DNA from: Verrucomicrobiaceae bacterium
Lineage (GTDB): Bacteria > Verrucomicrobiota > Verrucomicrobiia > Verrucomicrobiales > Verrucomicrobiaceae
Length of the DNA stretch: 64,000 nucleotides
Assembly (NCBI GenBank): GCA_027487315.1
Contig: JAIYDW010000062.1
Span: 26,043 to 90,042, forward strand
Direction of reading: 5' to 3'
The first letter of the stretch is position 1; every line of letters begins with the position of its first letter. A model generated the notes under the pieces. That model saw only the letters and a list, made by a program, of their open reading frames with translations. It searched no databases and was not told the origin of the DNA. Below are positions 1 through 64,000 of the stretch, one piece after another. A program made the position numbers and the translations under genes.

Positions 1-925
1 CGTAGCCCCGGGCGGCCAGCCAATCGGCGAGGAGGATAGCGGAATCTTCGCAATCGCCCATGCCGCGGGTTTGAGTTTGAAGCGCGGTTTGCCAGCGGTC
101 CGTTTTTTCTTTTTTCACGCCGGGATCTCGAGTGTAGGCGCAACTTTGATGAACGGCGGACCAAATGGTGAATAACTGCTCAACACGGGACTGGCCTTTG
201 GGATAAATGGATGGTGGCTGGTAGCCTGTGAGGTAGTGATTGACGTAGTGGAAGTGGCCAGAGGTATCGGCGGCGATGACGGCGTAGGTTCGATGGCAGG
301 ATGGGCACTCGAGGCTGGAGCTCTCCTGGTGGCGCATGGCGCGGCTGATGTGGCTGGATTTGCAGAGAGGGCAGACGTTGTAGAAGGCGTCGTCAGAGGT
401 TTGATGCAGGAGGTTGGGTGAGAATTCGCGCAGGCGACGGCCGGTGACGAGGAGGACTTGGTGGGCCATGCCGCCCGTGGTGGAGCGGCGAACACTGGCC
501 AAGTGGGTCATTTCGGGTGCGATTTTGTTTAGGGAATCGGTCAGGCTGTCTTTAACGAAGTCCAAGGTGGGGCCTGAAGCTGCGCTGACGGAGATTTTGA
601 GGTAGCGGGGTGACGATTCCTGAATCTGACTGACGACTGCGTCGAGGTTGTCGAGTGGGAGTCCGTCGTCGACGGCGCGCTGCAGCCAGGATTCGAGTTC
701 CTGGTCCGTTTGCAGGAGGGGTTGGGAGTTAGAGATTCGGGTGTAGTTGGCAAAGTCGAGCAGACCGACTCGGAAGAGGTTGATTTTTTTGGTATCTTCG
801 CTGCCCAAAGTCAATCGGGTCCAGAGAGCTTTCCATGTGGTGGCGTGACTTTCGTTCAGCCCTTTGACGGTGCCGGCGATGATCGCGGAACCGAGGCAAA
901 GGAGAAGAATGAGGCGCTTTCCCAT
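1..925 (-). CDS. Transglutaminase-like (papain-fold) protein with zinc-ribbon CxxC...CxxC and an N-terminal signal/anchor. The 3' end runs off the window (partial).
   Basis: Hand translation of the reverse strand from ATG (925-923); positions 1-300 checked codon by codon with no in-frame stop, positions 301-925 translated by eye without encountering a stop. It is absent from the ORF track because it has no stop in the window. Sequence: MGKRLILLLCLGSAIIAG..., CPLCKSS...CPSCHRTY, then GMGDCEDSAILLADWLAARGY, which resembles the transglutaminase-core Cys motif. Confidence 0.55.
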   Translation of the reverse strand, partial: MGKRLILLLCLGSAIIAGTVKGLNESHATTWKALWTRLTLGSEDTKKINLFRVGLLDFANYTRISNSQPLLQTDQELESWLQRAVDDGLPLDNLDAVVSQIQESSPRYLKISVSAASGPTLDFVKDSLTDSLNKIAPEMTHLASVRRSTTGGMAHQVLLVTGRRLREFSPNLLHQTSDDAFYNVCPLCKSSHISRAMRHQESSSLECPSCHRTYAVIAADTSGHFHYVNHYLTGYQPPSIYPKGQSRVEQLFTIWSAVHQSCAYTRDPGVKKEKTDRWQTALQTQTRGMGDCEDSAILLADWLAARGY

Positions 926-1037
926 TATGGAAAGTATAGCAGATACAATTGGCGGTTCAATGGGAATCGTTGGCTCTATGATGACAAAGAGCACCGCGGA
1001 ATGCAGGGATTTCTGCGATGTGTCAATTTACGTAACT

Positions 1038-2237
1038 CTAAAGTTTCAAAATCGTTACATTGCTGCCTGCTTCGATTGAGGAATCGGGGTTGATACGCAA
1101 GAGGCTATTGGCTTCTGCGAGAGCAAAGAGCGCGTCACTACGTTGGAGTCCGCTGGCCGTAAACTGACCTTTTTGAAGGACACCCCGGATGTAGTGTGGG
1201 CGGTCTCCAGGGTTGGTGACTTCATGAGAGAGGGTGGCGGTTGCTGTGGGAGGGCTGAGATCGCTGGAAGGGGTTCCGCACCATTTGAGGAGTGCAGGGC
1301 GAACGAAGAGTTGGAAAGTGACGAAGGTGGAGACTGGATTTCCGGGAAGGCCGAAGACGAACAGTGGCTTGGGCATCGAGCGATGGGTGAAGAGGAAAGG
1401 CTTGCCGGGTTTGATTTTGATTCGCCATAACTGAGGGGGTATGCCGAGTTCGGAGAGAGCTGGCTTGACATGGTCTTTGTCTCCGACCGAGACGCCGCCA
1501 CTCAGGATAATGATATCGTTTTGTTCTGACAGCCTTTGGAGGGTGGAGGTAGTATCAACGAGTGTATCAGGGGTATGAGCCAGTTCGGTGATCGGGAGGC
1601 CGAGTTGGAGCAGCAGGGCGGCGATCATGGAGCCGTTGGAATTGTAGAGCTGGCCGGGCAAGAGGGGGGCTGTGCCAGGGGGGACGAGTTCGTCGCCAGT
1701 GCTTAAGATGGCGATTCGAGGGAGGCGATAGACAGGCAAGTGAGTGAGGCCTTGAGAGGCTAGAAGGCCGATCCGACCTGGGGAAATGAGGGCGCCGGGT
1801 TGGAGAAGGATTTGGCCGGAGCAGAGATCGCTGCCTTGGAGTCGGATGTTTTCGCCTGGAATGACGGGTTCGGTGCAGGAGATGGAGTTGTCAATAACGG
1901 TGACGACTTCCTGCATGATAACGGCATCGCACCCTTTGGGGAGCGGCGCGCCGGTAAAGATCCGGATAGCGTGTCGGGGGGCCTCGATTTTGAGTTGGAG
2001 ATCGGGTCCGGCGGGTTGGATGCCGATGACGGTGATGGGCGAAGGATCGCGAGTGTCCGCAGCGCGAACGGCGTAGCCGTCCATCATGGAGTTATCGAAT
2101 CCGGGAAGGGGGATGGTGGCTGTTTGCTGAGTAGCGCAGCGGCGATTCAGGGTTTCAAGAAGCGGAAGAGACTCCGAAGTGGTGTTCTTTGGGATGGCTT
2201 CGAGAATTTTGGCGAGGGCTTCGGACTCGGTGATCAT
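1038..2237 (-). CDS. moeA: Molybdopterin molybdenumtransferase MoeA
   Basis: 399-aa ORF with the MoeA signature ...PGFDNSMMDGYAVRAADT... and full-length MoeA N/linker/C architecture. Its start overlaps the stop of the upstream ORF (ATGA). Confidence 0.9.
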   Translation of the reverse strand: MITESEALAKILEAIPKNTTSESLPLLETLNRRCATQQTATIPLPGFDNSMMDGYAVRAADTRDPSPITVIGIQPAGPDLQLKIEAPRHAIRIFTGAPLPKGCDAVIMQEVVTVIDNSISCTEPVIPGENIRLQGSDLCSGQILLQPGALISPGRIGLLASQGLTHLPVYRLPRIAILSTGDELVPPGTAPLLPGQLYNSNGSMIAALLLQLGLPITELAHTPDTLVDTTSTLQRLSEQNDIIILSGGVSVGDKDHVKPALSELGIPPQLWRIKIKPGKPFLFTHRSMPKPLFVFGLPGNPVSTFVTFQLFVRPALLKWCGTPSSDLSPPTATATLSHEVTNPGDRPHYIRGVLQKGQFTASGLQRSDALFALAEANSLLRINPDSSIEAGSNVTILKL

Positions 2238-2797
2238 GGGGCGATAGAGGCAGGGGGCTCTTCAGGGAGAGGCTCCAAAGGAATTGTCGGGAGAGGGGTT
2301 GAAGGGCTGTTTATGGTGGGAGGTGCAAGCGAATTGGTGTCGGGAGAGAGAATGGGAGGGGGCTGTCCGTCGCGCCATTCGACAGAGCTTGGGTTGGTGG
2401 CTGAGGGGAGGGATGGATTGACGGTGGGGGCAGGAACGGGTGGGGGGGCGGTTGGATCTGGCTGGTAGATGACAAGATTGCCGGGGCGAGGGTTTCCGGA
2501 TTTGATGTCGGCAGTGACGTGAGTTCCTTTGCGTTCGGGGGAGATGGTCAGTTGAGTGAGGGCACCCGTTGCGTCCAAGGCGGTCAAGGCTTGTCCAATG
2601 GGCATGGGTTGACGTGACTGCATCTTGATGAGAACAAACTTTTGGTCAGGGTTGACGAATTCGATGATGCCTACCGCGATGGGGTCGTTCTTGGGTTTTT
2701 CGGAGTTGTCCTTTGAGTCTTTGTCTTTGCTGGTGGAGGCGCAGGCTGTGAGGAGTGCGACAAAGCAAACGAGAAGTATGCGGTGGTAAAGGATCAC
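2234..2797 (-). CDS. Small secreted lipoprotein with a Pro-rich C-terminal tail (hypothetical)
   Basis: Track ORF 2234-2935 trimmed to GTG at 2797. This gives M-ILYHRILLVCFVALLTAC-AS, a signal peptide plus lipobox LTAC. It is translationally coupled to moeA. No recognisable family. Confidence 0.5.
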   Translation of the reverse strand: MILYHRILLVCFVALLTACASTSKDKDSKDNSEKPKNDPIAVGIIEFVNPDQKFVLIKMQSRQPMPIGQALTALDATGALTQLTISPERKGTHVTADIKSGNPRPGNLVIYQPDPTAPPPVPAPTVNPSLPSATNPSSVEWRDGQPPPILSPDTNSLAPPTINSPSTPLPTIPLEPLPEEPPASIAP

Positions 2798-3234
2798 AAG
2801 AAGAGGGTAGGGGAATTGGAGGTGGAGAACAAGCTTTGAACCCAGAATTGGAGACTGGAGGGATTCGTTTGCACGAGAAAGGCACCGCGACGCGAGGTCA
2901 CGGTGCCTTAGAATCCCACCTGTGCCGTTCGGCATGAGGGCTCACGTATCCCAGCGAGTCCAGGTGGGAGCCCAGCGAATCCTGGAGGTCGTCTTCCCCG
3001 AGGGGCCTGACAGAACCTCCTGGTCGAGCGCTCCCATGATTGAAGAATCGGGCCGGGCCACTAATTCCGATAACGAACACTGCAGGAAAGGATTGCAGAA
3101 ACCGGTTCCACAATTTGGAACCGAATCGTCTGCCAAAGCATGTCAAAGAGCCACCGCTGAGAAGCCGATGATGGGATTGAGATACGTCGCTCGTTGGGCA
3201 GATGCAATGCGAATTCGGGAGGGGGTGTCGCAGA

Positions 3235-4203
3235 CTATCGGCGTTTCCAAGTGAGGACTCTGGCCAATCGGTCGGTCACGCTGCGGGAGGCCGAGGGCTG
3301 GGGTGTTTGCAGGTCGGAGTCTGCCAAGATATCGGGATCACCCGAATCAAAATCTTCTGCGCGGGGCAGGCTGAGGAACGCTGGGGGAAGGGTTTGCTCC
3401 GAAAAGGTGGCGGAGAGGTCAACGCTAGCGTCTGCGACGGTTTCCGTGGTTTGGGGAAGCTCATTTGATTGGACCAAGGGGCGCTGATTGAGCGGAGCGA
3501 TGCCCGCATCGGGGCCGATGAGACCTCCTGAGAAGACGAGTTTCATGGCGTCCTCCATGGAGAGAGGGGCATCGGTGACTTTTTCGGAATCGACAACGAG
3601 GAGCAGACCGGTGGTGGGATTGGGAGTGGTGGGGATGAAGACGGAGGTGAGGGCCTTGCCTGATTTGGCGTCGGTGAATTGGCCTGTGACGAAAGCGACG
3701 AGGCGCATGCCGGGCACGGGATAGTCGATGTAGGCGACGCGTTTGAAGCTTTGGGCGCCGCCGATGGTCTTGAACGAGTCGATGACTTGTTTGAGAGATT
3801 TGTAGATGAAGGAGACGAAGGGGATGCGGAGCATCAGGCGATCAAAGGCGGTGACGATATGAACGCCGATGAAGTTGGTGGCCATAAAGCCGAGGGCGAT
3901 CAGGGCGACGATGGGAATGAGCACACCGATGAACCGGGTGGCCATGAGATAACGAGGGTCTTCGGTGCTGATGACCGGCTTTCCTGCGAGTTCATTGGCG
4001 AGATCAGCGAACCATTTGACGATGGGCTCGCTGGAGCCGTGGAGGAGGCTGTAGATGAACTGAAGGATGACAAAGGTGATGATCAGCGGGAGCGCGAGAG
4101 CGAGGCCAGCGAGAAACTTGTTTCGGATCCACACCATGACGCCACCGGCTGCTGGAGCAGCAGTGGGTGGGACGAGGGATTCGGGTTGGAGGGGTGGGAT
4201 CAC
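3235..4203 (-). CDS. DUF502 family membrane protein
   Basis: VWIRNKFLAGLALALPLIITFVILQFIY... is the N-terminal TM pair typical of DUF502. The start is either GTG 4203 or ATG 4137. Confidence 0.75.
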   Translation of the reverse strand: MIPPLQPESLVPPTAAPAAGGVMVWIRNKFLAGLALALPLIITFVILQFIYSLLHGSSEPIVKWFADLANELAGKPVISTEDPRYLMATRFIGVLIPIVALIALGFMATNFIGVHIVTAFDRLMLRIPFVSFIYKSLKQVIDSFKTIGGAQSFKRVAYIDYPVPGMRLVAFVTGQFTDAKSGKALTSVFIPTTPNPTTGLLLVVDSEKVTDAPLSMEDAMKLVFSGGLIGPDAGIAPLNQRPLVQSNELPQTTETVADASVDLSATFSEQTLPPAFLSLPRAEDFDSGDPDILADSDLQTPQPSASRSVTDRLARVLTWKRR

Positions 4204-4394
4204 GGAGGAGGTGAAAAGTGACGCTCAATGGGTTACGACAATCGAAACGTCTTTTCTCTTCAAAAAAGGTTTCGCGATTGTAACCTGGAATTGCGAGGGA
4301 AGCAACCGTGCCGGAAACGGGCGCGGGTTACGAGTGCCCTCCGGACAACAGATCCCTGCTATCCGGATGCACTTGAGGGGTGTTGATCGGCCGA

Positions 4395-5513
4395 CTAAGC
4401 GCCGACGAGCATCCTGGCAGGATTCTCGATGCAGTCTTTGACCCGCAAGAGGAAGGTGACGGCTTCTTTGCCATCCACGACGCGATGATCGTAGCTGAGG
4501 GCCAGATACATCATGGGGCGGATAACGACTTGTCCATCAATGGCCATGGGGCGCTGCTGGATGCTGTGCATGCCGAGGATCGCGCTTTGAGGCGGGTTGA
4601 GGATGGGGGTGCTGAGGAGCGAGCCGTAGACGCCGCCGTTGGAGATGGTGAAGACGCCGCCGGAGAGGTCGCTGATTTGGAGTTTGCCGTCTTTGGCCTT
4701 TTTCGCGTAGGCGAGGATGTCGAGTTCGAGGTCGGCGAAGGATTTTTTGTCGCAGTCGTGGAGGACGGGAACGACGAGGCCGCGTTCGGTGCCGACGGCG
4801 ACGCCGATGTCGTAGTAGTGTTGGTGGACGATTTCGTCGCCCTCGACGCGGACGTTGATGCCTGGGACGGCTTTGAGAGCTTCGACAACGGCTTTGATGA
4901 AGAAGGACATGAAGCCGAGTTTGACGCCGTTCTTGGCGAGGAAACCGTCTTGGAGCTTCTTGCGCATGTCCATGACAGCGGTCATGTCACATTCGTTGAA
5001 AGTGGTGAGGATGGCGGCGGTTTGCTGGGCGCTGACGAGTTGGTCAGCGATTTTGCGGCGCAGGGGTGTCATTTTTTTCCGAGTGACACGGCCTGAGGCG
5101 GGGGTGGATTGAGGGGCGGGAGCGGAAGGTTTTGGGGCTTCGGCGGGGGCCTTGAATTCGGTGATGTTTGCGGGCTCCGCTGGAGCGGGCGTTGGAGCAG
5201 GTGCCGCGACGGGAGTTGGGGCGGTTGCGACCGGGGCAGGAGCGGGGGGCTCTGGTTGGGCAGGGGCGGGAGCGCCTGCGGACTCGGCGATGGTGGCGAC
5301 GACATTGCCGATTTCGACATCTTCCCCTTCATTTTTGAGGATGGTCAGGGTGCCGGAGGCTTCGGCGGTGACTTCGGCGGCGACTTTATCGGTCTCGAGA
5401 GTGAGGAGGACGTCACCGACTTTGACGGCGTCACCGGTTTTGAAGTTCCATTTGGCGATTTGACCACCTGCGACGGACTCGCCGAGGGCTGGGATTTTGA
5501 CTTCTGTGGACAT
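4395..5513 (-). CDS. sucB: Dihydrolipoyllysine-residue succinyltransferase (E2 of 2-oxoglutarate dehydrogenase)
   Basis: Lipoyl domain with [12 protein letters not shown], an Ala/Pro-rich linker, and a catalytic domain with SYDHRVVDG. It lies directly downstream of sucA. Confidence 0.9.
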
Positions 5514-5566
5514 GAGTGATGGAGGGGAGGGATGAAGAGGGGCGGTGGAGAACGATGGTGTGGATC

Positions 5567-8326
5567 TTAGACTTCGAAGGCGTCTTCGACGAGGCGTTGT
5601 TGTTCGTGGAGGTGAACGGCTTTGGAGCCCGCGGCTGGGCTAGCGCTGCGTTCACGACCGGCGTAACGGACGGGGTGATTGCTGACCTCTTGCAGGCGAC
5701 GAGAGATGTAGGACCAGGAGCCCATGTTGCGGGGCTCTTCCTGACACCAGACGAGTTTTTTCTGAGCGCGAGGGTAGCGTGAGACGATGGCCTTGAGCAT
5801 TTCCCAGTGGAGAGGGTAGAGTTGCTCAATGCGGATGATGGCGGCATTTTTGATGCCCTGCTCTTCACGATATTTGATGAGGTCGTAGTAGACCTTGCCT
5901 GAGCAGAGGATGAGGCGGGTGACTTTTTCAGGGGCGACAGTGAGTTTGTCGTCGTCGAGGATTTCCTGGAAGGAGGTGCCTTCGGCCATGTCTTCGAGTT
6001 TGGACTGGCAGAGGGGATGGCGCAGGAGGCTCTTGGGCGTCATGACGACGAGCGGCTTGCGAATGCCGCGCTTCATTTGGCGCCGGAGAGCGTGGAAGTA
6101 CTGAGCGGGGGTGGAGAAGTTGCAGACCTGCCAGTTGCCTTCGGCGCTGAGTTGAAGGAAGCGTTCGAGGCGTGCGCTGGAGTGCTCAGGGCCCTGGCCT
6201 TCGTAGCCGTGTGGCAGGAGAAGCACGAGGTGGCTGGCTTGCATCCATTTGCTTTCCGCGCTGGCGATGAATTGGTCGATGATGACTTGGGCACCATTGA
6301 TGAAGTCGCCGAATTGGGCTTCCCAGCAGATGAGAACGTTGGGTGTCAGGAGAGAGTAGCCGTAATCGAAACCGAGAACGGCGGCTTCGGAGAGGAGGCT
6401 GTTGTAAACGCAGAAGCGGCCCTGGTCCGGGGTGAGATTTTGGAGGGGGATGAAGCGTTCGCGAGTCTCGGTGTCGTAGAGGACGGAGTGGCGTTGGGAG
6501 AAGGTGCCGCGACGGCTATCCTGGCCGGAGAGCCGGACGCCATGGCCGTCGGTGAGGAGGGTTCCGAAGGCGAGGGCCTCGGCATGTGCCCAGTCGAAGC
6601 CTTCACCGGTTTCGATGGCCTTGCGGCGTGCGGCGAGGAATCGGCGCTCGATGGTGGGGTGGAGGCGGAATTCGGTGGGGGTGTCGAGGAGTTTGGTGCC
6701 GACGGAGCGCAGGGTATCGATGGGGACCCCGGTGGGGATGACATCGTAGCAGTAGCCGGGTTGAGGAATAAAGAGGAAACCTTCGAAGGGGTTGCCACCG
6801 GCTTCTTTCTCACGTTTTTGAAGGCCTTGGACGCCGTCTTCGAGTTCCTGGACGAGTTCTTGTTCGAGGGTCGCGGCTTGCTCCGATGTGAGGACGTTGG
6901 AAGCGATGAGCTGATCCCGGAACAGGGTGGCCGTGGAGGGATGGCTGGCGATGGCGCGGGCCATGTTGGGCTGGGTGAATGCGGGCTCGTCGGTTTCGTT
7001 GTGGCCGTAGCGGCGGTAGCAGACGATGTCGATGACGACATCACGGGCGAAGGTTTGCCGGAACTCGAGAGCGAGCTGGGTGACCCAGGCGATTTCGAGG
7101 GGGCAATCACCATTGACATGGAAGATGGGGACTTCGAGGAACTTGGCGATGTCGGTGCAGTAGTCCGAGGAGCGGGCGTCGGCGGGAAGGGTGGTGAAAC
7201 CGATCTGGTTGTTGACGACGACGTGGATGGTTCCGCCGGTGCGATAGCCGGGGAGTTGGGAAAGGTTCAGCACTTCGGCAACGATGCCTTGGCCGGCGAA
7301 GGCGGCATCACCGTGAACGAGGACGGGGATGACTTTTTTGCGTTCGAGCGTGTCATCAAGAGCGCGCTGGCGGGCGCGGGCCTTGCCTTCGACAACAGGG
7401 TCGACAGCTTCGAGGTGGCTGGGGTTGGCGGCGAGCATGATGCCGACGCTGTCGCCAGATTCGGTTTGGCGAACGGTTTCGAAGCCGAGGTGATACTTCA
7501 CGTCGCCATCGCCAGCGACCATGTTGGGGACGTAGTTCTCGGTGAATTCGTAGAAGAGAACTTCGAGGGGTTTGCGGAGGAAGTTGGCGAGCACGCTGAG
7601 GCGGCCGCGGTGGGCCATGCCCATGACGATTTCTTTGCCGCCGAGAGCTGGCAGGCCTTCGAAGATGGTGCCGAGGGCAACGAGGAGGCCTTCACCGCCT
7701 TCGACGGAGAAGCGTTTTTGGCCGACGTAACGGCGGTGGAGGAAACGCTCGAAGGTTTCGGCTTCAAGGAGCCAACGGAGGGCGCCGATTTGTTTTTTGG
7801 CAGGGGGAACTGGGTGTTCGAGGCGATTTTCGATGCGATCCTGAAGCCACTGGCGGACTTCAGGAGTGTGGATGTGCATGTACTCGAAGCCGATCCGGTC
7901 GCAGTAGATGGAACGGAGATCTTTGAGCATCGCACTGAGCGGCATGGACTTGCCCTGGCGGAAGAGTTGAGTCTGGACGGACTCATTCATGTCACTCTCA
8001 GTGAAACCGAGAGAGGCCATGCTGAGGATCGCTGGGGTGGGGGCGGTCTTGCTGAGAGGGTCGAGCCAGGCAGCGGTGTGGCCGAGCGAGCGGAAAGTGT
8101 GGAGTGCGTTGGAGACGCGCATCCGGAAGTTGAGCGTTTCTTCCGAGAGGGATTGGGGGAGGCTGGAAGAGGCGTTTTTCTTGGTGGCAAGGTGGGCCAT
8201 GCCGAGTTCGAAACCCTCAAAGAAAGAGGCCCAGGTGGCGTCCACGGATTTGGGGTCTAGAGACCATTGGGAGTATTGGGATTCGAGGATGTCCTGATTC
8301 GAACGGGACGGTAAAGTGGCGCTCAT
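5567..8326 (-). CDS. sucA: 2-oxoglutarate dehydrogenase E1 component
   Basis: 919-aa ORF with full-length similarity to SucA (…RGHNETDEP-like [14 protein letters not shown], transketolase-like C-terminal half). Confidence 0.95.
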
Positions 8327-8903: not shown

Positions 8904-8974
8904 ATTCGGAGGGCAAGATGTCTGGAATGGCGGTTGACCTGGGGAGTTCGACAGGTAGGTTCCGCGCTCTTAAA

Positions 8975-9724
8975 ATGAAAACCACCCTTCAAGCTGCCGT
9001 CGCAGCCACGCTTGCCGTTGCCGCACCTCTGTTCAGTCAAACTCCGGAACCTGCTGCGCCTGCGGGCGAACCTGCGACTGCTCCGGCTCCCGCAACCGGT
9101 CCTGCTGACATGAGCAAGGTGAGTTACTTCATTGGCACGAACATTGGAGGGCAGATGAAGAGCCAGGGGATCAAGATCAACATGGAGGAGCTGGCCGCAG
9201 GCATTAAGACCGCGCTGGAGGGTGGAACACCGAAGTACACTCAAGAGCAGCTGGCCACGGCGATGCAGGCCTTTGAGGGCGAGATGCAAGCGAAGCAGGC
9301 TGCGATGCAGGCTGAAGAAGCAAAGAAGTTCGAGGCTGCGAAGGCTGAGGGCGAAAAGTTTTTGGCTGAGAACAAGAAGCGCGAGGGCGTGACGACGACG
9401 GCGAGTGGCCTGCAGTATGAAGTTCTCACGAAGGCTGACGGTGCCAAGCCAGCGGCAACTGACCAAGTGAAGGTGCACTATCATGGCACGCTGGTGGACG
9501 GCAAAGTGTTCGACAGTTCGCGGGATCGCGGAGAGCCGGTGACCTTCCCTGTGCAAGGGGTGATCAAGGGCTGGGTTGAGGCTTTGCAGTTGATGCCTGT
9601 TGGGTCGAAGTGGAAGTTGTTCATCCCTTCCGAACTGGCTTATGGCAAGCAAGGTGCAGGGGCTGACATTGGTCCTGATTCGGCACTCGTGTTTGAGGTC
9701 GAGTTGCTTGAGATCGTGAAGTAG
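8975..9724 (+). CDS. FKBP-type peptidyl-prolyl cis-trans isomerase (Mip/FkpA-like, secreted)
   Basis: Signal peptide MKTTLQAAVAATLAVAAPLFSQ, a helical N-domain, and a C-terminal FKBP domain (VKVHYHGTLVDGKVFDSS...VIKGWVEALQLMPVGSKWKLFIPSELAYG). Confidence 0.85.
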   Translation: MKTTLQAAVAATLAVAAPLFSQTPEPAAPAGEPATAPAPATGPADMSKVSYFIGTNIGGQMKSQGIKINMEELAAGIKTALEGGTPKYTQEQLATAMQAFEGEMQAKQAAMQAEEAKKFEAAKAEGEKFLAENKKREGVTTTASGLQYEVLTKADGAKPAATDQVKVHYHGTLVDGKVFDSSRDRGEPVTFPVQGVIKGWVEALQLMPVGSKWKLFIPSELAYGKQGAGADIGPDSALVFEVELLEIVK

Positions 9725-14419: not shown

Positions 14420-14425
14420 TGCGTC

Positions 14426-44050: not shown

Positions 44051-44104
44051 TTTGCGGACGGGGTGGGAGGGGTTGGGGGAGGGGCGGTTTTTGGGGACGA
44101 GGGG

Positions 44105-45613: not shown

Positions 45614-45794
45614 GGTGGGGCCAAGGCGCGGGTTGGGGCAGTGGTAACAGTGTGGGAGGGGTGGACCTTTCGGGGGGAATGCGGTTTGTGACGGGAAACG
45701 GAGTGAAACAAGATGGAAAGGTGGTTGTGAAAGCGTTGAGTAGGACCATGCTGGGGGCTTCGTCCACGGCAGCTTTCAACGCGTTCCTTCCTTC

Positions 45795-46274: not shown

Positions 46275-46343
46275 AGAGGGGGGAGTGGGGAGGAACGTTG
46301 AACGGGGGTTGACTGGGGTGGGGGTGTGGGGCGTAGTTGGGGG

Positions 46344-47126: not shown

Positions 47127-47134
47127 GGTGCTAT

Positions 47135-51904: not shown

Positions 51905-51913
51905 GCGGGTGGG

Positions 51914-53203: not shown

Positions 53204-53290
53204 GGGGGTGGGAGGATGGGGGAGAAATGGGGGGGAATCAAGGGCGGGGCTTGGGGCGTTGGCCTCAGCGGAGGGGATGACCCCATAGTC

Positions 53291-53668
53291 TCATTTTCTG
53301 ATGAGAATGATGATGAATAAAGGGAGAGCCAAAGAGGCTAGAGCGCAGAAGTGTGGTAGAGAGAAGAGGGGCCGGTGATCTCTGCGGAGGGAGATGGCGT
53401 ATCCGCAGAGAAGGCAGACAAGGCCACATACGGTGATGAACATGGCGACTACAAATGGAAGGGCCACAGCGGGAACAACACCTCTTTCCAACTCTTCCGC
53501 TGACAAGTATTGGCTAATTCGACTCAGTGAATGACTACTACCAGCCATGAAGCAGAGGGGGGCTGCGGTCGCGACCGAGCCGGTCCATAGAAAAGCGATG
53601 GAATCAGGAAGTTCCAGTGAACGGTCAGACGGTTCGTAGCTCATCGCATGGTAGGGTAGTTCACTCAA
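53291..53668 (-). CDS. Hypothetical small membrane protein (low-GC insert between pheT and hisS)
   Basis: 125-aa ORF with three or four hydrophobic segments (VVPAVALPFVVAMFITVCGLVCLLCGYAI, CALASLALPLFIIILI). No family recognised. Confidence 0.4.
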   Translation of the reverse strand: MSELPYHAMSYEPSDRSLELPDSIAFLWTGSVATAAPLCFMAGSSHSLSRISQYLSAEELERGVVPAVALPFVVAMFITVCGLVCLLCGYAISLRRDHRPLFSLPHFCALASLALPLFIIILIRK

Positions 53669-53737
53669 CTTGGTCGGGACAAGATAATTCCCGCCTGATG
53701 ATTGAGCGCCAGCGGGGGCGGTGTTCGGTGCCTGGGG

Positions 53738-56155: not shown

Positions 56156-56197
56156 TGAAGGAAAGAGATTGAGGATTGAGAGATGGTAGCGAGATGC

Positions 56198-57217
56198 TTA
56201 GAATTGGCGGAGGAAGCGGAGGTCGTTTTCGATGAGGTGGCGGATGTCGGTGATGCCGTGGAGGATCATGGCGAGGCGGTCGAGGCCGAGGCCGAAGGCG
56301 AAGCCGGTGATTTCGGTGGGGTCGAAGAGGGTGTCTTTGCGGCTTTGACTGACGGCTTCGAAGACGGCGGGATCGACCATGCCGCAGCCGGCGATTTCGA
56401 TCCAGCGATCCTCTTTGCCTTTGGCTTCGAGTTTGACGTCGATTTCGAAACTGGGTTCGGTGAAGGGGAAGAAGTGGGGGCGGAAACGGACGGCGGTTTT
56501 GGGGCCGAAGATTTCGCGGAAGAAGTATTCGAGGGTACCCTTCAAGTCGGCGAGGGAGACGTCTTTGTCGACGTAGAGGCCTTCGAGTTGATTGAAGACG
56601 GAGAGGTGGGTGGCGTCGATTTCATCGCGCCGGTAAGCGGCTCCGGGGGCGATGATGCGGACGGGGAGTTCTTTGGCGGATTCCATGGTGCGAATCTGCA
56701 CGCTTGAGGTGTGGGTGCGGAGGAGGCGACCGTCGTTGAGGTAGAAGGTGTCGCTCTCGTTGCGGGCGGGGTGATCGGCTGGGGTGTTGAGGGCGTCGAA
56801 ACAGTGCCATTCGGTCTCGACTTCGGGGCCTTCGGCGAGGGCGAAGCCCATGCGGCGCAGGGTGGTGATGGCGAGGTGGCGGATCTGGGTGAGGGGGTGA
56901 AGAGAGCCGATGCCGAGGCCTGGGCGGCCGGGGAGGGTGATGTCGAGTCCGGAGACGGAAGCGGCGTCTTTGGTGGCTTGGAAAGCGAGCTGGCGGGAGG
57001 TGATGCCATCGGTGATGGCGGTGCGGACTTCATTGAGTTTGGCGCCGACGTCTTTTTTGAGGTCGGGGGGGACATCCTTCATGCCCGAGCTGAGGGCGGT
57101 GAGCTTGCCTTTTTTGCCGAGGAAGTCGATGCGGAGGGCTTCGAGGGCGGACTCGTCGGAGGCGGCCTCGAGGGCGGCGAGGGCTTCGGTGTGGAGGGAG
57201 GTGAGGTCGGAGAGCAT
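56198..57217 (-). CDS. pheS: Phenylalanine--tRNA ligase alpha subunit
   Basis: 339 aa with class II core motifs (...FRPHFFPFTEPS..., GCGMVDP). Confidence 0.95.
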   Translation of the reverse strand: MLSDLTSLHTEALAALEAASDESALEALRIDFLGKKGKLTALSSGMKDVPPDLKKDVGAKLNEVRTAITDGITSRQLAFQATKDAASVSGLDITLPGRPGLGIGSLHPLTQIRHLAITTLRRMGFALAEGPEVETEWHCFDALNTPADHPARNESDTFYLNDGRLLRTHTSSVQIRTMESAKELPVRIIAPGAAYRRDEIDATHLSVFNQLEGLYVDKDVSLADLKGTLEYFFREIFGPKTAVRFRPHFFPFTEPSFEIDVKLEAKGKEDRWIEIAGCGMVDPAVFEAVSQSRKDTLFDPTEITGFAFGLGLDRLAMILHGITDIRHLIENDLRFLRQF

Positions 57218-57233
57218 CGGCGTTCTGTTTGGG

Positions 57234-57270
57234 ACAGGATTGACAGGATTTGAGGATTAACGGGATTTTT
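57234..57270. repeat. Phased GGATT array (four units) 14-55 nt upstream of the pheS start
   Basis: GGAT starts at 57237, 57246, 57254 and 57263. It shares a 17-nt identity with 43957-43973. Confidence 0.9.
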
Positions 57271-57311
57271 GCGGTCGGGAGGACTGGCTGGGGAGTGGGT
57301 CTTGCGCTGAC

Positions 57312-57344
57312 AAGAAAACAGCCGGGGCGTGAGGGCCCCGGCTG
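57312..57344 (-). terminator. Rho-independent terminator after rplT
   Basis: 10-bp GC-rich stem CAGCCGGGGC / GCCCCGGCTG (57319-57328 / 57335-57344). On the minus strand it is followed by TGTTTTCTTG. Confidence 0.75.
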
Positions 57345-57380
57345 TGGTTTGAATTGAAGTTTCCTGGGTGGAGCCGGGGT

Positions 57381-57764
57381 TTAGGCGGCCTTGGCTTGGG
57401 AAGCCTTTTGGACGAGGGCTTCTTTGGCTTTGGCGATCAAGGTTTCGACGGCGGCTTCATCAGTGACGGCGAGGTCGGCGAGGACTTTGCGGTCGATTTC
57501 GATGCCGGCGGCCTTGAGGCCTTCCATAAATCGGCTGTAGGAGAGACCGTGAGCACGAGTGGCGGCGTTGATGCGCTGGATCCACAGGTTGCGGAAGGTG
57601 CGTTTCCGGACTTTACGGTCGCGGTAGTTGTAGACCATGGCTTTCCGCACGGCGTCTTTGGCGTAGCGGAAGTTGGTGGAACGGAAGCCGCGGAATCCTT
57701 TGGCTTTATCGATGGTGCGCTTGCGGCGCTTGCGACTGGCTGGTGAGTTGGTTGCTCTAGGCAT
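57381..57764 (-). CDS. rplT: 50S ribosomal protein L20
   Basis: [26 protein letters not shown]...[11 protein letters not shown]... Confidence 0.95.
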
Positions 57765-58101: not shown

Positions 58102-58208
58102 AGGGGCCGAGAGGGTAGAGGCTTTTCTCAAACCTGCAAGAGCTTTTTGGAAGGGTTTTTCGAGGTTGGGGTTGTGCGGGTGTGGGATCGGGGGTTGGAT
58201 GGGGTTTG

Positions 58209-59273
58209 ATGTTGGAGCGGTTGTCGGTTCGTGATTTTCGATGTTTTGACCGGGTGCAGGTGGAACTGGACCCGGAGATGACGGCGTTGGTGGGGCGGAA
58301 CGGGCAAGGGAAGACGTCGCTTCTGGAGGCTGCGTGTGTGCTTTTGAGGCTGCAGTCGCCGAGAACGTCGAGTCGGGAGGAGTGGATTCGGTTTGGGCAG
58401 ACGGCGGCGGTGGTGGAGGGGAGGTGGGGGGAGCTGGACCTGCGGGTGGCGGTGACGGAGAAGGCGAGGCGGTTGGCGGTGGATGGGGCTGTGTGCGGGC
58501 GGGCGGGCGAGTATTTGGAGAGGTCGGGGGTCGTGGTTTGGATGGATCACTCGGACATGAATCTGCTGCGGGGAGGGGGGGAGCATCGGCGGCGGTTTCT
58601 GGATTTTGCGGGGAGTCAGGCGTTTGCGGACTATTTGCCGGCGTTGCGGGCGTATGAGCGGGCTTTGCGGGGGAGGAACTATGTGTTGAAGCGGGATGCG
58701 GTGATTGCGTGGAAGGAGGCGGAGGCGTTTGGGCGGGTGATGGCGGAGCATGCGCGGGTGTTGACGGGGCGCCGGGCGGAGTTGTGTGAGGCGATGCGGC
58801 TGCCGGTGGCGGATTTTCATGCGCGGGTAAGCGGGGGGGAGGAGGTGGTGCAGCTGGGCTACACGGCGGGATCCGAGGGGGAGGATTTGGGCGAGGAGCT
58901 TTTGGGTTGGCGGGATGAGGAGGCGAGGTTGCGGGTGACGTTGAGGGGTCCGCATCGGGACGATTTGGAGATGAGGCTGAGGGGACAGGATGCGCGGGCG
59001 TTCGCGTCGGAGGGTCAGCAGCGGACTTTGGCGCTGGCGATGAAGTTGTCGCAGGCGCGGGTTTTGTTTGAGTTGCGGGGGCAGGCGCCGTTGCTGCTGG
59101 TCGACGATGTTTTTGGGGAATTGGACGTGGAGCGGCGGAGGGCGTTTTTGAATTGCCTGCCTTCGGGGACGCAGAAGATTTTGACGACGACGCGGATGGA
59201 TTGGATGGGGGACGAGGTGATGGGGGGGCGGGTTTATGAGGTGGCTGGGGGAGGTGTCGGGTTGGTGGGTTGA
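58209..59273 (+). CDS. recF: DNA replication and repair protein RecF
   Basis: [13 protein letters not shown]..., Walker [14 protein letters not shown], signature [23 protein letters not shown]. Confidence 0.9.
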
Positions 59274-59479
59274 GGTGGAGTGATTACGGAAATTATTATA
59301 GAGGCATTAACCAAACTTGCCTTGACGGCTTCTGGGGGGGGCCTAGTTTGAGAGCTCCCTCTATAATGGTGGTCGCACGGTTTCTTGTGATCCCTGGAAT
59401 TTCTAGATTCGGCGCGTTCTGCGTTTGGGTCTTGGGGGTGGCTTTCGTTTTTTTAACCTTTTATTCTTATCATTTACTC

Positions 59480-60511
59480 ATGCTTGGCAGACTTTTTGGA
59501 TTTGTCGCAAAGGACATTGGAATCGACCTTGGAACCGCAAACACGCTCGTTTACGTCAAAGATCACGGTATTGTGCTGCGGGAGCCTTCGGTGGTTGCCG
59601 TTAGGACGGGCACGAACGAGGTCGTGGCGGTTGGGGATGATGCGAAGCGGATGCTGGGTCGGACGCCGGGAGGAATCACGGCGATTCGGCCGCTCAAAGA
59701 TGGTGTGATTGCGGACTTCCGGGTGACAGAAGCGATGCTGCGTCATTTCATTCGCAAGGTGCACAACAATCGGCGCGCCTGGCGTGGGCCGAGAGTGGTG
59801 ATTGCGGTTCCCTCAGGGATCACTGAAGTGGAGAAGCGGGCGGTGCGGGAGAGTGCGGAGCAGGCGGGGGCACGGGAAGTGCACTTGATCGAGGAGCCGA
59901 TGGCGGCGGCGATCGGGGTGGGCTTGCCGGTGCAGGAGGCAGCAGGGAACATGATCGTTGATATCGGCGGTGGCACCACGGAGGTGGCGATCATTTCGCT
60001 GTCGGGAATCGTTTACAGTCGGAGTGTTCGCGTGGCGGGAGATGAGCTTGATGAGGCGATGATCAGCTACATGAAGCGGGCTTACAATTTGATGATTGGT
60101 GAGCGGACGGCTGAGGAGATCAAGCTGCGCATTGGGTCGGCATTCCCGATGGGCAAGGAGACGACGATGGAAGTGAAGGGGCGTGACATGGTGGCGGGTC
60201 TGCCGAAGACGATAGTGATCACGAGTCAGGAAGTGCGTGAGGCGATGCTAGAGCCGCTGAATGCGATCATTGATGCGGTGCGGACAACGCTGGAGCGATG
60301 CCCGCCTGAATTGTCTGCTGACTTGGTGGATCGTGGGATCATGCTGGCGGGTGGTGGTGCTTTGTTGCGAGGGCTGGACAAGCTGCTTGCAGAGGAAACC
60401 TCGTTGCCGGTGCACATTGCAGAGGATCCGCTGAGCGCTGTGGGTGAAGGGACGGGCCGTGTGCTCAACTCGTATGAATTCCTGCGCAAGGTGAGCACGC
60501 TGGAAGTCTAA
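59480..60511 (+). CDS. mreB: Rod shape-determining protein MreB
   Basis: Trimmed to ATG 59480: [25 protein letters not shown]..., [10 protein letters not shown]. The 206-bp AT-rich region upstream is non-coding. Confidence 0.95.
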
Positions 60512-60584
60512 GACGGTGATGCTGACGGACGCCTGAAGGTGTTGCGAGTTTAATCAAATCCGGACCTGAGCAAGGACAACTGCG

Positions 60585-61397
60585 ATGAGGAAACTGAATG
60601 TGCTAGCTGTGGTGCTGTTTGTGGCATCTTTGGTGGCCGTTTTCATGTTGAACACGCCGACGACACGGCGCATTCAGGAGCGCGTCCTGGCGGTGTTTGC
60701 GCCGTTTGTGCATTCGAGTGCGGCAGTGGGTGATGCGGTGGAGGCGGTATCGGCGCCGGGGATGGACTCCGTGGAATTGGCTGAGCGCAACGAGCAATTG
60801 CGAATGGAGGTGCAGCGGTTGCGGATCATTGCACAGAAGTACAATCAGTTGGTGGATGAGAATGGGCAGTTGAGAAAGGTTTTGGAATTCAAGGGTGCCT
60901 CCCCATTCAAGATGACTGCGGCACGGGTGATCAAGCGTTCGTCGACGACCTGGTGGAACACGTTGTTGATTGATAAAGGATCGCTGGATGGGATCGGCAC
61001 CGACAGTCCGGTGATTACGGAGCAGGGGTTGGTCGGCAAGACGGGGAAGTTGGCGCCGCACATGGCTGAGGTCATTCTTTTGACCGATGAGATGTGTCGG
61101 GTGTCGGCAAAAGTTGAAGGGACTCTTGAGCAAGGTATTCTTGCTGGAGAGCGTGCAGGTCTGGACATGGTGCCGAACCTGCATTTGCGTTTTTTGAGTC
61201 GCAATGCGCCGATCAATGCGGGTGCGAATGTTTATTCGTCAGGAGATGGAGGGGTGTTTCCGGCGAATCTTTTGTTGGGTCGAGTGATTCGTTTTCAGAA
61301 CCGGGATATCTCGGGTGAAGCGCTGGTGAAACCGGCGGTGGATTTCTCGGCATTGGACCACGTGTTTGTAATCGAGATGCAGGAGATTCTGCAATGA
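60585..61397 (+). CDS. mreC: Rod shape-determining protein MreC
   Basis: N-terminal anchor, a coiled-coil (LAERNEQLRMEVQRL) and a beta-barrel domain (SPVITEQGLVGKT..., VYSSGDGGVFP). Confidence 0.85.
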   Translation: MRKLNVLAVVLFVASLVAVFMLNTPTTRRIQERVLAVFAPFVHSSAAVGDAVEAVSAPGMDSVELAERNEQLRMEVQRLRIIAQKYNQLVDENGQLRKVLEFKGASPFKMTAARVIKRSSTTWWNTLLIDKGSLDGIGTDSPVITEQGLVGKTGKLAPHMAEVILLTDEMCRVSAKVEGTLEQGILAGERAGLDMVPNLHLRFLSRNAPINAGANVYSSGDGGVFPANLLLGRVIRFQNRDISGEALVKPAVDFSALDHVFVIEMQEILQ

Positions 61398-61419
61398 ACT
61401 CTGGAGGCGACTGACACTC

Positions 61420-62034
61420 ATGCTGTTCAACTCGGTGGTCTTGATCTTGCTGCTGCTGTCCTTTGGGCTGCAAGAGTTCGTGCCTGCGGTGCCGATTGCG
61501 TATCACGCGAGGCTGTTTTTGCCGGCGGTGTTTTTCTTTACCTCAGCGGTGGCGACCTCGTTTCCGATGATGCTGCTGTTGGCGTTTGTAACGGGATTTT
61601 TGTGGGATGCGCGTTTTTTGCCAGCGCCGATGGCGAGTCCAGATGAGGCGTTGGCGTTGATGGAGGGAGTGGAAAGGCAGTTCACGGGGATGGGCAGCGG
61701 AGAGGTGATGTTTGGGATGTCGATCGTGTTTTTTGGATTGTTTGGCACCTTGATGCAGGGGGTGCGCCCGTTGTTTAAAAGGGGGCGGCTGGAGTTGCCT
61801 GTCGTGATGATTGGGATCGCAGTGTTTGGGTGGCTCTTGAGTCAGTATTTGATGATTACTTTCATTAGAGGAAGTTTTAGCTTTCCACCGGCGGTGTGGT
61901 CAAAGATGATCACGGATACCTTGCTGGCGATGTTAGTGGCACCGTTGTTGTTTTTGCTGCTGCATGCTTTGGCACGGTGGATGAGGTTCGAAATCCGATA
62001 CGACGGGTTACGTCATTATTCTCATGGTCGTTAG
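61420..62034 (+). CDS. mreD: Rod shape-determining protein MreD
   Basis: Polytopic 204-aa protein in the canonical position between mreC and mrdA. It overlaps the mrdA start by 11 nt. Confidence 0.7.
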   Translation: MLFNSVVLILLLLSFGLQEFVPAVPIAYHARLFLPAVFFFTSAVATSFPMMLLLAFVTGFLWDARFLPAPMASPDEALALMEGVERQFTGMGSGEVMFGMSIVFFGLFGTLMQGVRPLFKRGRLELPVVMIGIAVFGWLLSQYLMITFIRGSFSFPPAVWSKMITDTLLAMLVAPLLFLLLHALARWMRFEIRYDGLRHYSHGR

Positions 62035-64000
62035 ATACAAATTCAGACTTTACCTGTTCAGCCTGCTCATGCTGGCGGGGTTCTTTCTGCTTGTGTATCG
62101 GCTGTGGTCTTTGCAGATCGACCGGCATGCTGAGTTTGCGAAGATGGTGCGCGTGGGAAGTGAATTGAAGGCGAGGATTCCGGGAGTTCGGGGCGAGATC
62201 AAGGATCGCAACGGGATCACTCTGGCGACGAATCGAGCGATCTTTGAAGTGCGGATCAATCTCGGGGAGATGCTGAATGAGTACAACCGGTTGGTGCGGA
62301 TTGGACAAATGAAGGAAGTGCCGCCGTTCACTCACAATGTGACGGAGCGTGGGATCATGCGGGAGCGGTCGGAGCCGGATGTGGCGCAGATTTTCAAGCA
62401 GACGATCATGCGCAGGTTGGGCGAGATTGGTTTGGAGGCGAGGAGTTTTAATGCGGATGAGGACATGCGGATTCATTTCCGGACTTTTGCGAGCATTGTG
62501 CCGTGGGTTTACCGGAAGGATGTCACATTCACGGAGTTTAGCCGATTTGCGGAGCACAACTTGGGCTTGCCCGGCGTGACGGTGGCTGAGAGGGCGGTGA
62601 GAGAGTATCCTTATCAATCGCTGGCGAGTCACATTTTGGGCTACGTTCGCTTGCCGGAGGATCAGCGGGTGACCGAAGAGGAGAAAGAGGAATGGGATCG
62701 ATATCTGCCCGACGACTTTGGAGGTGAAGGGGTAGAGAAGAGTTTTGACGAGTATCTGAAGGGCAAGCCAGGTGTGCGCACGATGAAGGTGAGCGAGCGT
62801 GGTCGCTTGGTGGGTGAGGTCAGCTTCAAAGAACCACGCAAGGGTAATGATGTGTATTTGACCATTGATGCGCGCATTCAATACATCGCAGAGAAGGCTT
62901 TGAGAGATGGCGGCATTGGAAGGGGAGCGGTGGTGGTGATCGAGCCAAACAGTGGAGAGGTTTTGGCGATGGCCTCCGTGCCTTCCTACAATCCAAACAA
63001 ATTCATTCCGAGCATCAGCACGAAGGACTATCGCGAATATCTCGATAACCCGGTGAATCCGCTCTTCAACCGAGCGGTGCAAGCTTATGCACCGGGTTCG
63101 ACGTTCAAGATCCCGATCGCATTTGCGGGGTGTTTGGCCGATATCCAGGGGCGCAGTTACAGTTGTCCGGGTGGTGTCCAGTATGGGAACAAGACCATGC
63201 ATTGTTGGATCGCTCAAAAGGGTGGGTCACACGGGTCATTGGGGCTGAGTGATGCGATCATGAGGTCATGCAATTGCTTCTTCTACCGGTATGGCAATGC
63301 GGCGGGCATCAATAACATCACCAAAGCGTGTCAGATGCTTGGAGTGGGAGTGAAGACGGGGATTGAGTTGGAGGCGGATACTCCAGGGGTGTTGCCGAAT
63401 CCAGAGTGGTTGCAATTGAACCTTCCAAAAGAACGGTGGAGTGACGGGTTTACCGCGAACACCTCGATTGGGCAGGGGTTTGTTTTGGCGACCCCATTGC
63501 AGATGGCGTCGGTGGTGGCGACGGTAGCCAATGGCGGGAAGTCGTATCGACCGCATCTGCTCAAGCGGGTGATGGATGGTGATACGTTGGTGAAGGAGCA
63601 GCAACCGGAGGAGTTGGCGAGCTTGGAGAAGGAAGGGATCACGCCGCAGGAGATTGAGCTCATCCGCAAGGGCATGTGGAAGGTGGTGAACGCGCCGAGT
63701 GGCACAGCGCGTGGTGCCCAGATTCCGAATGTGGAGGTCGCGGGTAAGACGGGGACGGCGCAGGCCTGGCGACCTGACAAGGGGAAGTCGATCAAGGACA
63801 ACCATACGTGGTTTATCTCTTTTGCGCCGTATGTGAAGCCGAAATATGCCGTCTGCATTCTGGTGCAGGGGGGGTATTCTGGCGGGGGAACGGCGGCGCC
63901 GGTGGCGAAGCGAGTGTTGGAACAGGCGCTGGCCCTTGATCATGGGTATGAGGTGAAGATTGAGCCGATCCCGGAGGAGAAGGGTAACTTCAATCAGGTG
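62024..64000 (+). CDS. mrdA: Penicillin-binding protein 2 (elongasome transpeptidase). The 3' end runs off the window.
   Basis: Hand translation from ATG 62024: MVVRYKFRLYLFSLLMLAGFFLLVYRLWSLQIDRH.... Motifs STFK, SCN and KTGTA are present. It is not in the ORF track because there is no stop in the window. Confidence 0.9.
   Translation, partial: MVVRYKFRLYLFSLLMLAGFFLLVYRLWSLQIDRHAEFAKMVRVGSELKARIPGVRGEIKDRNGITLATNRAIFEVRINLGEMLNEYNRLVRIGQMKEVPPFTHNVTERGIMRERSEPDVAQIFKQTIMRRLGEIGLEARSFNADEDMRIHFRTFASIVPWVYRKDVTFTEFSRFAEHNLGLPGVTVAERAVREYPYQSLASHILGYVRLPEDQRVTEEEKEEWDRYLPDDFGGEGVEKSFDEYLKGKPGVRTMKVSERGRLVGEVSFKEPRKGNDVYLTIDARIQYIAEKALRDGGIGRGAVVVIEPNSGEVLAMASVPSYNPNKFIPSISTKDYREYLDNPVNPLFNRAVQAYAPGSTFKIPIAFAGCLADIQGRSYSCPGGVQYGNKTMHCWIAQKGGSHGSLGLSDAIMRSCNCFFYRYGNAAGINNITKACQMLGVGVKTGIELEADTPGVLPNPEWLQLNLPKERWSDGFTANTSIGQGFVLATPLQMASVVATVANGGKSYRPHLLKRVMDGDTLVKEQQPEELASLEKEGITPQEIELIRKGMWKVVNAPSGTARGAQIPNVEVAGKTGTAQAWRPDKGKSIKDNHTWFISFAPYVKPKYAVCILVQGGYSGGGTAAPVAKRVLEQALALDHGYEVKIEPIPEEKGNFNQV

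Follow-up and report, generated by a model that had tools for sequence, protein, structure and literature searches.

Background

Vertebrate mitochondrial DNA has one strand that is low in C and A and rich in G and T, a pattern credited to deamination during prolonged single-strandedness. A comparable asymmetry is described here for a 64-kb piece of the chromosome of an uncultured lake bacterium of the family Verrucomicrobiaceae (assembly GCA_027487315.1, contig JAIYDW010000062.1, positions 26,043 to 90,042; this whole 64,000-nt stretch is called the window and is read on its plus strand), in which G exceeds C throughout regardless of which strand holds the local gene. The window resembles vertebrate mitochondrial DNA in whole-sequence skew and in strand-dependent codon usage. 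The mitochondrial pattern, however, is linked to a 16-kb circle that replicates by strand displacement, whereas the window belongs to a multi-megabase chromosome with ordinary housekeeping genes and gave no sign of that mode.

Among bacteria the closest described systems are Borrelia burgdorferi, Treponema, Chlamydia, Ehrlichia canis and Lawsonia, in which genes form two codon classes by strand and not by expression, as in the window; in organisms of the Borrelia type G and T are enriched on the leading strand, with effects on amino-acid content (PMC2099444, PMC3023944, PMC2671203). These are AT-rich, small-genome parasites with a strong T/A component, while the window comes from a free-living lake bacterium of 60% GC whose T/A strand component is about zero at four-fold degenerate sites. 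In the 2007 survey of 352 chromosomes by Morton and Morton, the highest replication-dependent G/C component at four-fold sites was 0.433 in Blochmannia floridanus (PMC2099444, Table 6), with 0.426 in Clostridium acetobutylicum, 0.35-0.36 in Ehrlichia and 0.229 in B. burgdorferi (PMC2099444). The same measure, the four-fold G/C component minus coding-strand effects, was about 0.81 in the window and thus about twice that of the top genomes of the survey, although the components were separated here via the two gene orientations within one replication arm and there via two arms. No published maximum later than that survey was found.

Typical bacterial skew is about 2.5% according to SkewDB (PMC8941118), and the bacterial mean excess of G is 23-25 per kb (PMC12999951) compared with 217 per kb in the window. 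The first-pass annotation, made from the letters of the window alone, had judged the magnitude to be far above ordinary, and both the excess of G and the four-fold component bear this out. Verrucomicrobia are among the low-bias phyla (PMC4613354, Table 1), and no earlier report of extreme skew in Verrucomicrobia or any bacterium was found in the literature, only organellar and mammalian cases. The phenomenon is known in kind; what is new is its amplitude, its host and a series of relatives in which it is graded. The cause of bacterial GC skew is debated between single-strand deamination, polymerase asymmetry and selection, and a lineage at about nine times the bacterial mean, with relatives ranging from none to extreme, forms a natural comparative series in which the gain or loss of repair and replication genes can be matched to skew amplitude.

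Strand composition of the window

The plus strand contained 26,234 G, 12,355 C, 11,431 A and 13,980 T, which corresponds to a GC content of 60.3%, a GC skew, (G-C)/(G+C), of +0.360 and an AT skew of -0.100, and parity of G and C was missed by 70 standard deviations over the whole window. All thirty-two 2-kb bins were positive (+0.22 to +0.54), none of the 128 segments of 500 nt was at or below zero, a single 200-nt segment out of 320 reached zero (at 9001), and the 1-kb maximum was 0.56 at 46001. The skew was +0.40 over plus-strand genes, +0.35 over minus-strand genes and +0.35 over the 5.5 kb of intergenic DNA. The claim of the first-pass annotation that the plus strand is G-rich whichever strand holds the local gene was therefore confirmed, and the sliding-window computation it had proposed returned a positive skew throughout and not the small, ordinary-range value that would have spoken against it. 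Its observations were upheld in full, including the hand counts of G and C in three 60-nt lines, which were exact (36 and 7 at 37201-37260, 31 and 8 at 26041-26100, 14 and 25 at 9001-9060). The last of these, cited as a local exception, lies in the N-terminal leader of an FKBP-type isomerase gene and arises because this Ala/Pro/Thr-rich leader fixes C at codon positions 1 and 2.

Runs of five or more G numbered 279 on the plus strand while runs of five or more C were absent, in agreement with the first-pass statement that long G-runs are confined to that strand. Plus-strand T-runs of at least five also outnumbered A-runs, 140 to 12, far above the expectation from base frequencies, because TTT (Phe) is preferred in plus-strand genes and the AAA (Lys) of minus-strand genes reads TTT on the plus strand. 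GC content was 0.60-0.68 between 30000 and 58000 compared with 0.56-0.61 in 1-30000 and 60000-64000, and the GC content of third codon positions (GC3) of genes was likewise 0.80-0.88 inside this region and 0.64-0.77 outside it, with a stronger skew inside. Both GC content and gene GC3 fell again past 60 kb, where the final open reading frames (ORFs) had a weak third-position skew.

Codon and amino-acid usage by strand

Thirty-eight genes, 13 on the plus strand and 25 on the minus strand, were confirmed by full-length Pfam matches. The ORF lists of both strands were swamped with overlapping open frames, and real genes were told from these by their common signature, GC3 > GC1 > GC2, the last two being the GC contents of codon positions 1 and 2. 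The mean coding-strand skew at third positions (GC3 skew) was +0.63 in the plus-strand genes and -0.69 in the minus-strand genes. Read on the plus strand, the skews at codon positions 1, 2 and 3 were +0.40, +0.03 and +0.63 in plus-strand genes and -0.04, +0.27 and +0.69 in minus-strand genes.

The asymmetry was strongest at the least constrained positions, the four-fold third sites, where the plus-strand reading gave G.665 and C.105 in plus-strand genes and G.806 and C.059 in minus-strand genes (chi-square 4654 for G versus C by gene strand). For the A, G, P, T and V codons the four-fold GC skew on the plus strand was +0.735 in plus-strand and +0.879 in minus-strand genes, which decomposed into components of +0.81 for the strand and -0.07 for the coding strand. 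The window thus shows skew of the Lobry type, with G exceeding C on one strand whatever the gene orientation, and not the reversal with gene orientation expected of a coding-strand, transcription-coupled asymmetry. At the same sites the excess of T over A tracked the coding strand instead (component 0.26). Two-fold sites in genes of both orientations favoured G over A on the plus strand by about 4-5:1 and T over C by about 2-3.5:1.

Codon choice followed from strand as the first-pass annotation had read by eye, with C- or A-ending codons in minus-strand genes (CTC.82, GCC.81, ACC.85, AAA.78, GAA.78, CAA.61) and G- or T-ending codons in plus-strand genes (GCG.68, GTG.78, ACG.69, AAG.87, GAG.78, TTG.53). 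The codon-usage analysis and third-position comparison that it had suggested agreed with this reading. In a principal component analysis of relative synonymous codon usage, the first component carried 84% of the variance and separated the strands completely, all 13 plus-strand genes being negative and all 25 minus-strand genes positive, and third-position G and C differed sharply by gene strand. The poles of this component were TTG, GTG, ACG, CGG and GCG against CTC, CGC, GTC, ACC and GCC. A main axis of codon usage that divides genes by strand is the Borrelia type of strand-specific usage.

Amino-acid composition was also affected: G, V, E, M and W were higher in plus-strand genes and L, P, I, T and S in minus-strand genes. 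At sites of plus-strand genes that were conserved among relatives and changed in the window, the net changes were +20 Val, +14 Met, +9 Glu, +8 Trp and -27 Ile, which is pressure from A>G, or from any base to G, reaching the proteins. The window is in this respect a limit case for mutation pressure, with codon usage fully rewritten and protein composition shifted (Ile to Val or Met in plus-strand genes).

Distribution of the organism

Among species-representative genomes, the closest leucyl-tRNA synthetases (LeuS) were those of Prosthecobacter and Brevifollis in the family Verrucomicrobiaceae, at 79-84% identity. The exact LeuS of the window had no entry in the protein records, LeuS scans of genomes and metagenomes gave nothing above 84%, and the closer strains came from a protein search only, in which clusters at 98, 97, 90 and 86-87% identity were followed by a plateau near 83%. 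Sampled 31-mers of the window were present in at least 20 metagenome runs of freshwater or lake origin, belonging to 16 studies between 2018 and 2024. Contigs of two runs (X1 and X2) differed from the window DNA at 0-1 positions each, a strain diverged by 2-3% was present in runs X5 and X7, and strains diverged by 3-6% were present in other studies and lakes. The contigs of the LeuS clusters belong to assemblies of JGI, ENA and Logan that represent different lakes and years. As matching DNA occurs in independent assemblies of different lakes, the organism is real, widespread and uncultured; the independent assemblies agree and the Pfam domains are intact, which is neither the irreproducible sequence nor the damaged coding capacity of an artefact.

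Graded skew among relatives

The 160 verrucomicrobial leuS loci had a median absolute skew of 0.028 and a 95th percentile of 0.105. In nine ordinary relatives, the coding-strand GC3 skew of the same genes was -0.1 to -0.3 in either orientation, their four-fold sites held C.47 and G.35, and the strand component was about 0 +/- 0.05. The strand component of GC3 skew rose with relatedness to the window, from about 0 in the ordinary Prosthecobacter- and Brevifollis-like relatives (LeuS identity at most 84%) to about 0.3 in locus L170 (84%), 0.35-0.5 in L165 and L169 (86-87%), 0.35-0.6 in L164 (90%) and 0.6-0.65 in L161-L163, L166-L168 and the window itself (97-100%). Whole-locus skew was +0.23 in L164 and +0.32 to +0.33 in the 97-98% strains.

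Compared with the nine ordinary relatives, two-fold sites on the plus strand of the window had C-over-T odds reduced 3.5-3.8-fold and G-over-A odds raised 1.9-2.6-fold in genes of both orientations. As the C/T and G/A odds shift together, the change amounts to a loss of amino bases and a gain of keto bases on one strand.

The idea that the ordinary relatives share the polarity in a weaker form, suggested by a positive whole-locus skew in 12 of 14 Verrucomicrobiaceae leuS loci, was rejected, as the third-position strand component was about zero and the positive skew of these loci was mostly a purine excess at codon position 1 of plus-strand genes. The skew also seemed to change sign towards the right ends of L165 and L169. 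This possible terminus was likewise discarded, being a 5-kb low-skew patch after which the skew is positive again, with no dif-like site.

Patches of genes with near-zero or opposite GC3 skew were seen in two of the high-skew relatives (L165 2261-4215 and 17558-20961; L169 10111-13513) and contained a cupin, an M28/M20 peptidase, a PolyA_pol-family enzyme and two hypothetical genes beside an RHS-repeat gene. They are not syntenic with the window and probably represent DNA moved or acquired too recently to have equilibrated, for which a near-zero or opposite skew is expected under a slow, cumulative process. The single outlier among the 160 loci, L159 (CEWR01104876.1, 3.3 kb; 66% LeuS identity), had an overall skew of -0.23, with its leuS on the C-rich strand and with leuS third-position skews of -0.53 for GC and +0.43 for AT, and may be an independent origin of strong skew.

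Recent substitutions

The window and L162 were 97.3% identical over 22.5 kb, and 552 substitutions between them were polarised with the L166-L168 strains, about 6% from both, as outgroup; L162 and L163 are identical where they overlap. Complementary substitution rates differed, as they do under replication-linked skew. Per ancestral plus-strand base at third positions, C>T was 0.057 against 0.035 for G>A (ratio 1.63, p=0.004), A>G was 0.073 against 0.047 for T>C (ratio 1.55, p=0.025) and C>G was 0.0125 against 0.0036 for G>C (ratio 3.5, p=0.003). The commonest recent change was G>A, and G is currently in net loss.

Origin of the asymmetry

There is very little doubt that this is a real, mutation-driven strand asymmetry independent of transcription. 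It is a property of the DNA strand and not of transcription, is strongest at unconstrained sites, is ongoing and, on balance, depletes the plus strand of the amino bases C and A. The skew is likely to be the ordinary replication-linked mutational asymmetry of bacterial strands, amplified in one freshwater clade, and a link to replication with the usual polarity is likewise likely.

Under this mechanism the lagging-strand template (the leading strand in sequence terms, which we infer to be the plus strand here) would stay single-stranded for longer. The exposed strand would lose C by deamination to U, read as T, or as G after excision, and would lose A by conversion to hypoxanthine, read as G. 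The general GC-favouring pressure of the clade could make plus-strand G the sink state, because its partner C on the other strand would be protected. The effect would have been amplified stepwise within the clade to about nine times the bacterial average, for which the candidates are lost excision of uracil or hypoxanthine, weakened mismatch repair or proofreading, altered lagging-strand priming and lost restart pathways. In endosymbionts, strong bias has been reported to accompany the loss of restart pathways (cited in PMC4613354).

Several points weigh against this reading. No origin, terminus, dif site or skew switch that would tie the skew to replication and set its polarity occurred in the window or in the loci compared with it, which in the 491-kb JGI contig of L162 took in 10 kb on either side of the anchor genes, and the ordinary relatives cannot fix the polarity since their strand component at this locus is about zero. 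The C-rich strand carries between 66 and 68% of coding sequence, with rplT, pheST, hisS, clpC, sucAB and ilvC among its genes, while in most bacteria rplT, pheST, hisS, clpC and sucAB sit on the leading strand. Four-fold T was not raised on the plus strand relative to the relatives, C being replaced by G at constant GC3, so that C>T deamination by itself does not suffice and a GC-favouring force or a C>G component has to be added. The rate matrix fitted to the recent substitutions had an equilibrium GC3 skew of +0.42 (95% confidence interval 0.22-0.59) and a GC3 of 0.56, below the observed +0.63 and 0.73, a shortfall of the sign to be expected if fixation favours changes that raise GC. The polarised C>T substitutions were flat with respect to 5' and 3' context and gave no handle on the chemistry.

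As to the chemistry, the case for single-strand deamination over polymerase error is evenly balanced. Uracil excision followed by bypass of the abasic site can produce C>G along with C>T. In ung-deficient Escherichia coli expressing APOBEC3G, cytosine deamination reportedly falls on the lagging-strand template (attributed to Bhagwat et al. 2016, PNAS); there C>T favours that template, and the C>T changes of the window differ in having no TC or other context preference.

The alternative that survives best keeps the same replication geometry and attributes the skew to asymmetric errors of the leading and lagging polymerases, unmasked by lost or weak mismatch repair or proofreading. In its favour, both transitions are asymmetric by a similar factor of about 1.6, C>T lacks a context signature, and mismatch-repair-deficient E. 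coli mutation-accumulation lines are said to show an approximately 2-fold strand bias of transitions (attributed to Lee et al. 2012, PNAS). The 3.5-fold excess of C>G is, however, atypical of mismatch-repair deficiency, and long-term loss of mismatch repair usually lowers GC, while GC3 here (0.64-0.88) equals that of the relatives. This explanation is possible but stands well behind replication-linked exposure of one strand.

It is unlikely that the clade replicates or repairs its chromosome in a way undescribed for bacteria, which would take one of three forms: prolonged single-strand exposure as in mitochondria, a fork-specific loss of uracil or hypoxanthine excision, or a G-rich lagging strand. 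If this were so, the genetic determinant of GC skew could be identified from the graded relatives, whose strand components span 0 to 0.8. Slightly less probable again is a reversed polarity as such, in which the G-rich plus strand is lagging and the C-rich, gene-bearing strand is leading, under a process unlike the ordinary one. The location of two thirds of coding sequence on the C-rich strand, with the rplT operon and the other housekeeping genes named above, is a mild hint in this direction. The first-pass annotation had likewise pointed out that about two thirds of coding sequence would be head-on to replication if the plus strand leads. The figure itself stands (15.7 kb of confirmed coding sequence on the plus strand and 34.0 kb on the minus strand, or 68% of 49.7 kb) but is not anomalous, because Verrucomicrobia show no gene-strand bias, their median of 49.9% being the lowest of all bacterial clades (PMC11040001). 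The genes are arranged in about 13 alternating same-strand blocks, so that the minus-strand excess comes from block length and not block number, and a 2:1 split over this many blocks is unremarkable. Furthermore, G exceeds C on the leading strand in nearly all bacteria, to the extent that Morton and Morton assign the leading strand by it (PMC2099444), and the excess of C>T and A>G on the G-rich strand is that expected of a lagging-strand template.

Selection for a G-rich strand, through polar G-rich motifs, G-quadruplexes or strand-specific codon adaptation, is very improbable. All 43 G-quadruplex-type motifs are on the plus strand together with the G-runs described above, but these motifs are rarer than composition predicts (43 against 80 +/- 7 in block shuffles), the skew peaks at four-fold synonymous sites and is also present in intergenic DNA, the asymmetry is already visible in recent substitutions, and amino-acid changes track the bias passively. 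A sequencing or assembly artefact, or a skew tied to transcription or gene orientation, is refuted by the recurrence of the sequence in assemblies of JGI, ENA and Logan that cover different lakes and years, by full-length Pfam matches in 38 of 38 genes, and by a skew of equal sign in both orientations with only the small coding-strand component given above.

Shadow reading frames and annotation

Very long ORFs opposite or across real genes (Table 1) arise because of the strand skew. The compositions that the first-pass annotation had reported for them were recovered, G/E/A/V/D-rich on the plus strand and R/L/H/P-rich on the minus strand. Only the C-terminal third of the 1633-aa frame is a real sulfatase; its remainder either shadows plus-strand genes or reads the second sulfatase off frame. 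In L161 (ENA ERZ28593842 scaffold_6), shadow ORFs on the G-rich strand were called at locus positions 2500-6500 in place of sucB and sucA; these false calls of 238, 136, 87 and 747 aa, the last opposite sucA, had no Pfam hits, whereas the JGI pipeline called the real genes in the identical DNA of L162 (JGI Ga0492733_0000001). Shadow ORFs of 700-1600 codons thus arise, and at least one public annotation took them over the real genes. Gene catalogues and protein databases that draw on genomes of this kind will include spurious 'proteins' rich in G, E, A and V.

Gene content and other features of the window

The plus-strand genes identified by Pfam were UPF0047, FKBP isomerase, M42 peptidase, leuS, GT1 glycosyltransferase, glgB, PBP1A, gcvH, dienelactone hydrolase, tatD, a RecF/SMC_N-type ATPase, mreB and mreC. 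Those on the minus strand were moeA, DUF502, sucB, sucA, lipid A acyltransferase, clpC, mcsB, HAD hydrolase, MGDG synthase, nadC, an EEP-family protein, alcohol dehydrogenase, a weak MFS match, parB, BatA, DUF58, ilvC, esterase, two sulfatases, lnt, hisS, pheT, pheS and rplT. No tRNA genes were found in the window.

Table 1. Coordinates and third-position skew of features in the window (GC3 skew is given for the coding strand)
Feature	Position	Strand	Support	Remarks
Continuous domain of G>C (also T>A) without sign change	1-64000			Genes of both strands and intergenic DNA
233-aa ORF	2234-2935			Overlapped at its 5' end by 6S RNA
6S RNA	2909-3091	-	RF00013, 55 bits	
sucB, sucA	4395-8326	-	Pfam	C/A-ending codons; GC3 skew -0.65 to -0.67
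747-aa shadow ORF	6017-8260	+		Not a gene; opposite sucA; G 16, E 14, A 14, V 10, D 9%
FKBP-type isomerase	8918-9724	+	Pfam	Overall skew only +0.18; GC3 skew +0.31; contains the 9001-9060 exception
leuS, GT1 glycosyltransferase, glgB	11849-17691	+	Pfam	G/T-ending codons; GC3 skew +0.56 to +0.62 (same genes in ordinary relatives -0.1 to -0.3)
clpC, mcsB	17763-21429	-	Pfam	GC3 skew -0.65
PBP1A (transglycosylase/transpeptidase)	25832-28039	+	Pfam	GC3 skew +0.59
parB	32546-33448	-	Pfam	
774-aa ORF	33520-35844	-		No Pfam match
Tandem heptamer arrays	35513-35545, 35848-35880, 38363-38395			(GATTGCG)n on the plus strand, (CGCAATC)n in minus-strand sense
BatA, DUF58, ilvC	36190-40693	-	Pfam	GC3 skew -0.85, -0.77, -0.58; BatA contains 37201-37260
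1633-aa open frame	42105-47006	-	Pfam sulfatase domain at residues 1055-1361 only	Chimera
Sulfatase	~42105-43844	-	Pfam	C-terminal third of the 1633-aa frame
Second sulfatase	44105-45613	-	Pfam	
gcvH, dienelactone hydrolase, 313-aa ORF, tatD	45795-48894	+	Pfam	GC3 skew +0.69 to +0.83; strongest local skew
lnt, hisS, pheT, pheS, rplT	50168-57764	-	Pfam	GC3 skew -0.67 to -0.83; GC3 0.72-0.88
874-aa shadow ORF	50696-53320	+		Opposite lnt and hisS; G 25, E 16, A 15%
RecF/SMC_N-type ATPase	58182-59273	+	Pfam	
RecF/SMC_N-type ATPase, mreB, mreC	58182-61397	+	Pfam	GC3 skew +0.38 to +0.83
Final ORFs	61910-63943	-		No Pfam match; weak GC3 skew

The genes parB and the RecF-like ATPase lie near the origin in many bacteria; in the window neither adjoins parA, dnaA or dnaN, and no skew switch is close by. 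A signature-motif scan for DnaA, MutS, MutL and Ung across all 170 loci returned nothing usable. The 6S RNA overlaps the 233-aa ORF, and the true start of that ORF is therefore further downstream, if it is a gene at all.

The tandem heptamer arrays are located directly upstream of minus-strand start codons at about 35509, about 35845 and 38358, the last being that of BatA, and the array may be a lineage-specific leader or promoter-proximal repeat. Metagenome contig depth was 88-960x in the 534-nt bin 35341-35874, which holds the first two arrays, compared with 5-20x in neighbouring bins, and as its depth so far exceeds theirs the motif is multi-copy in the genome or the community. The first array interrupts the 774-aa ORF, and because of this break the ORF is probably two genes of a Bat/aerotolerance-type cluster and not one.

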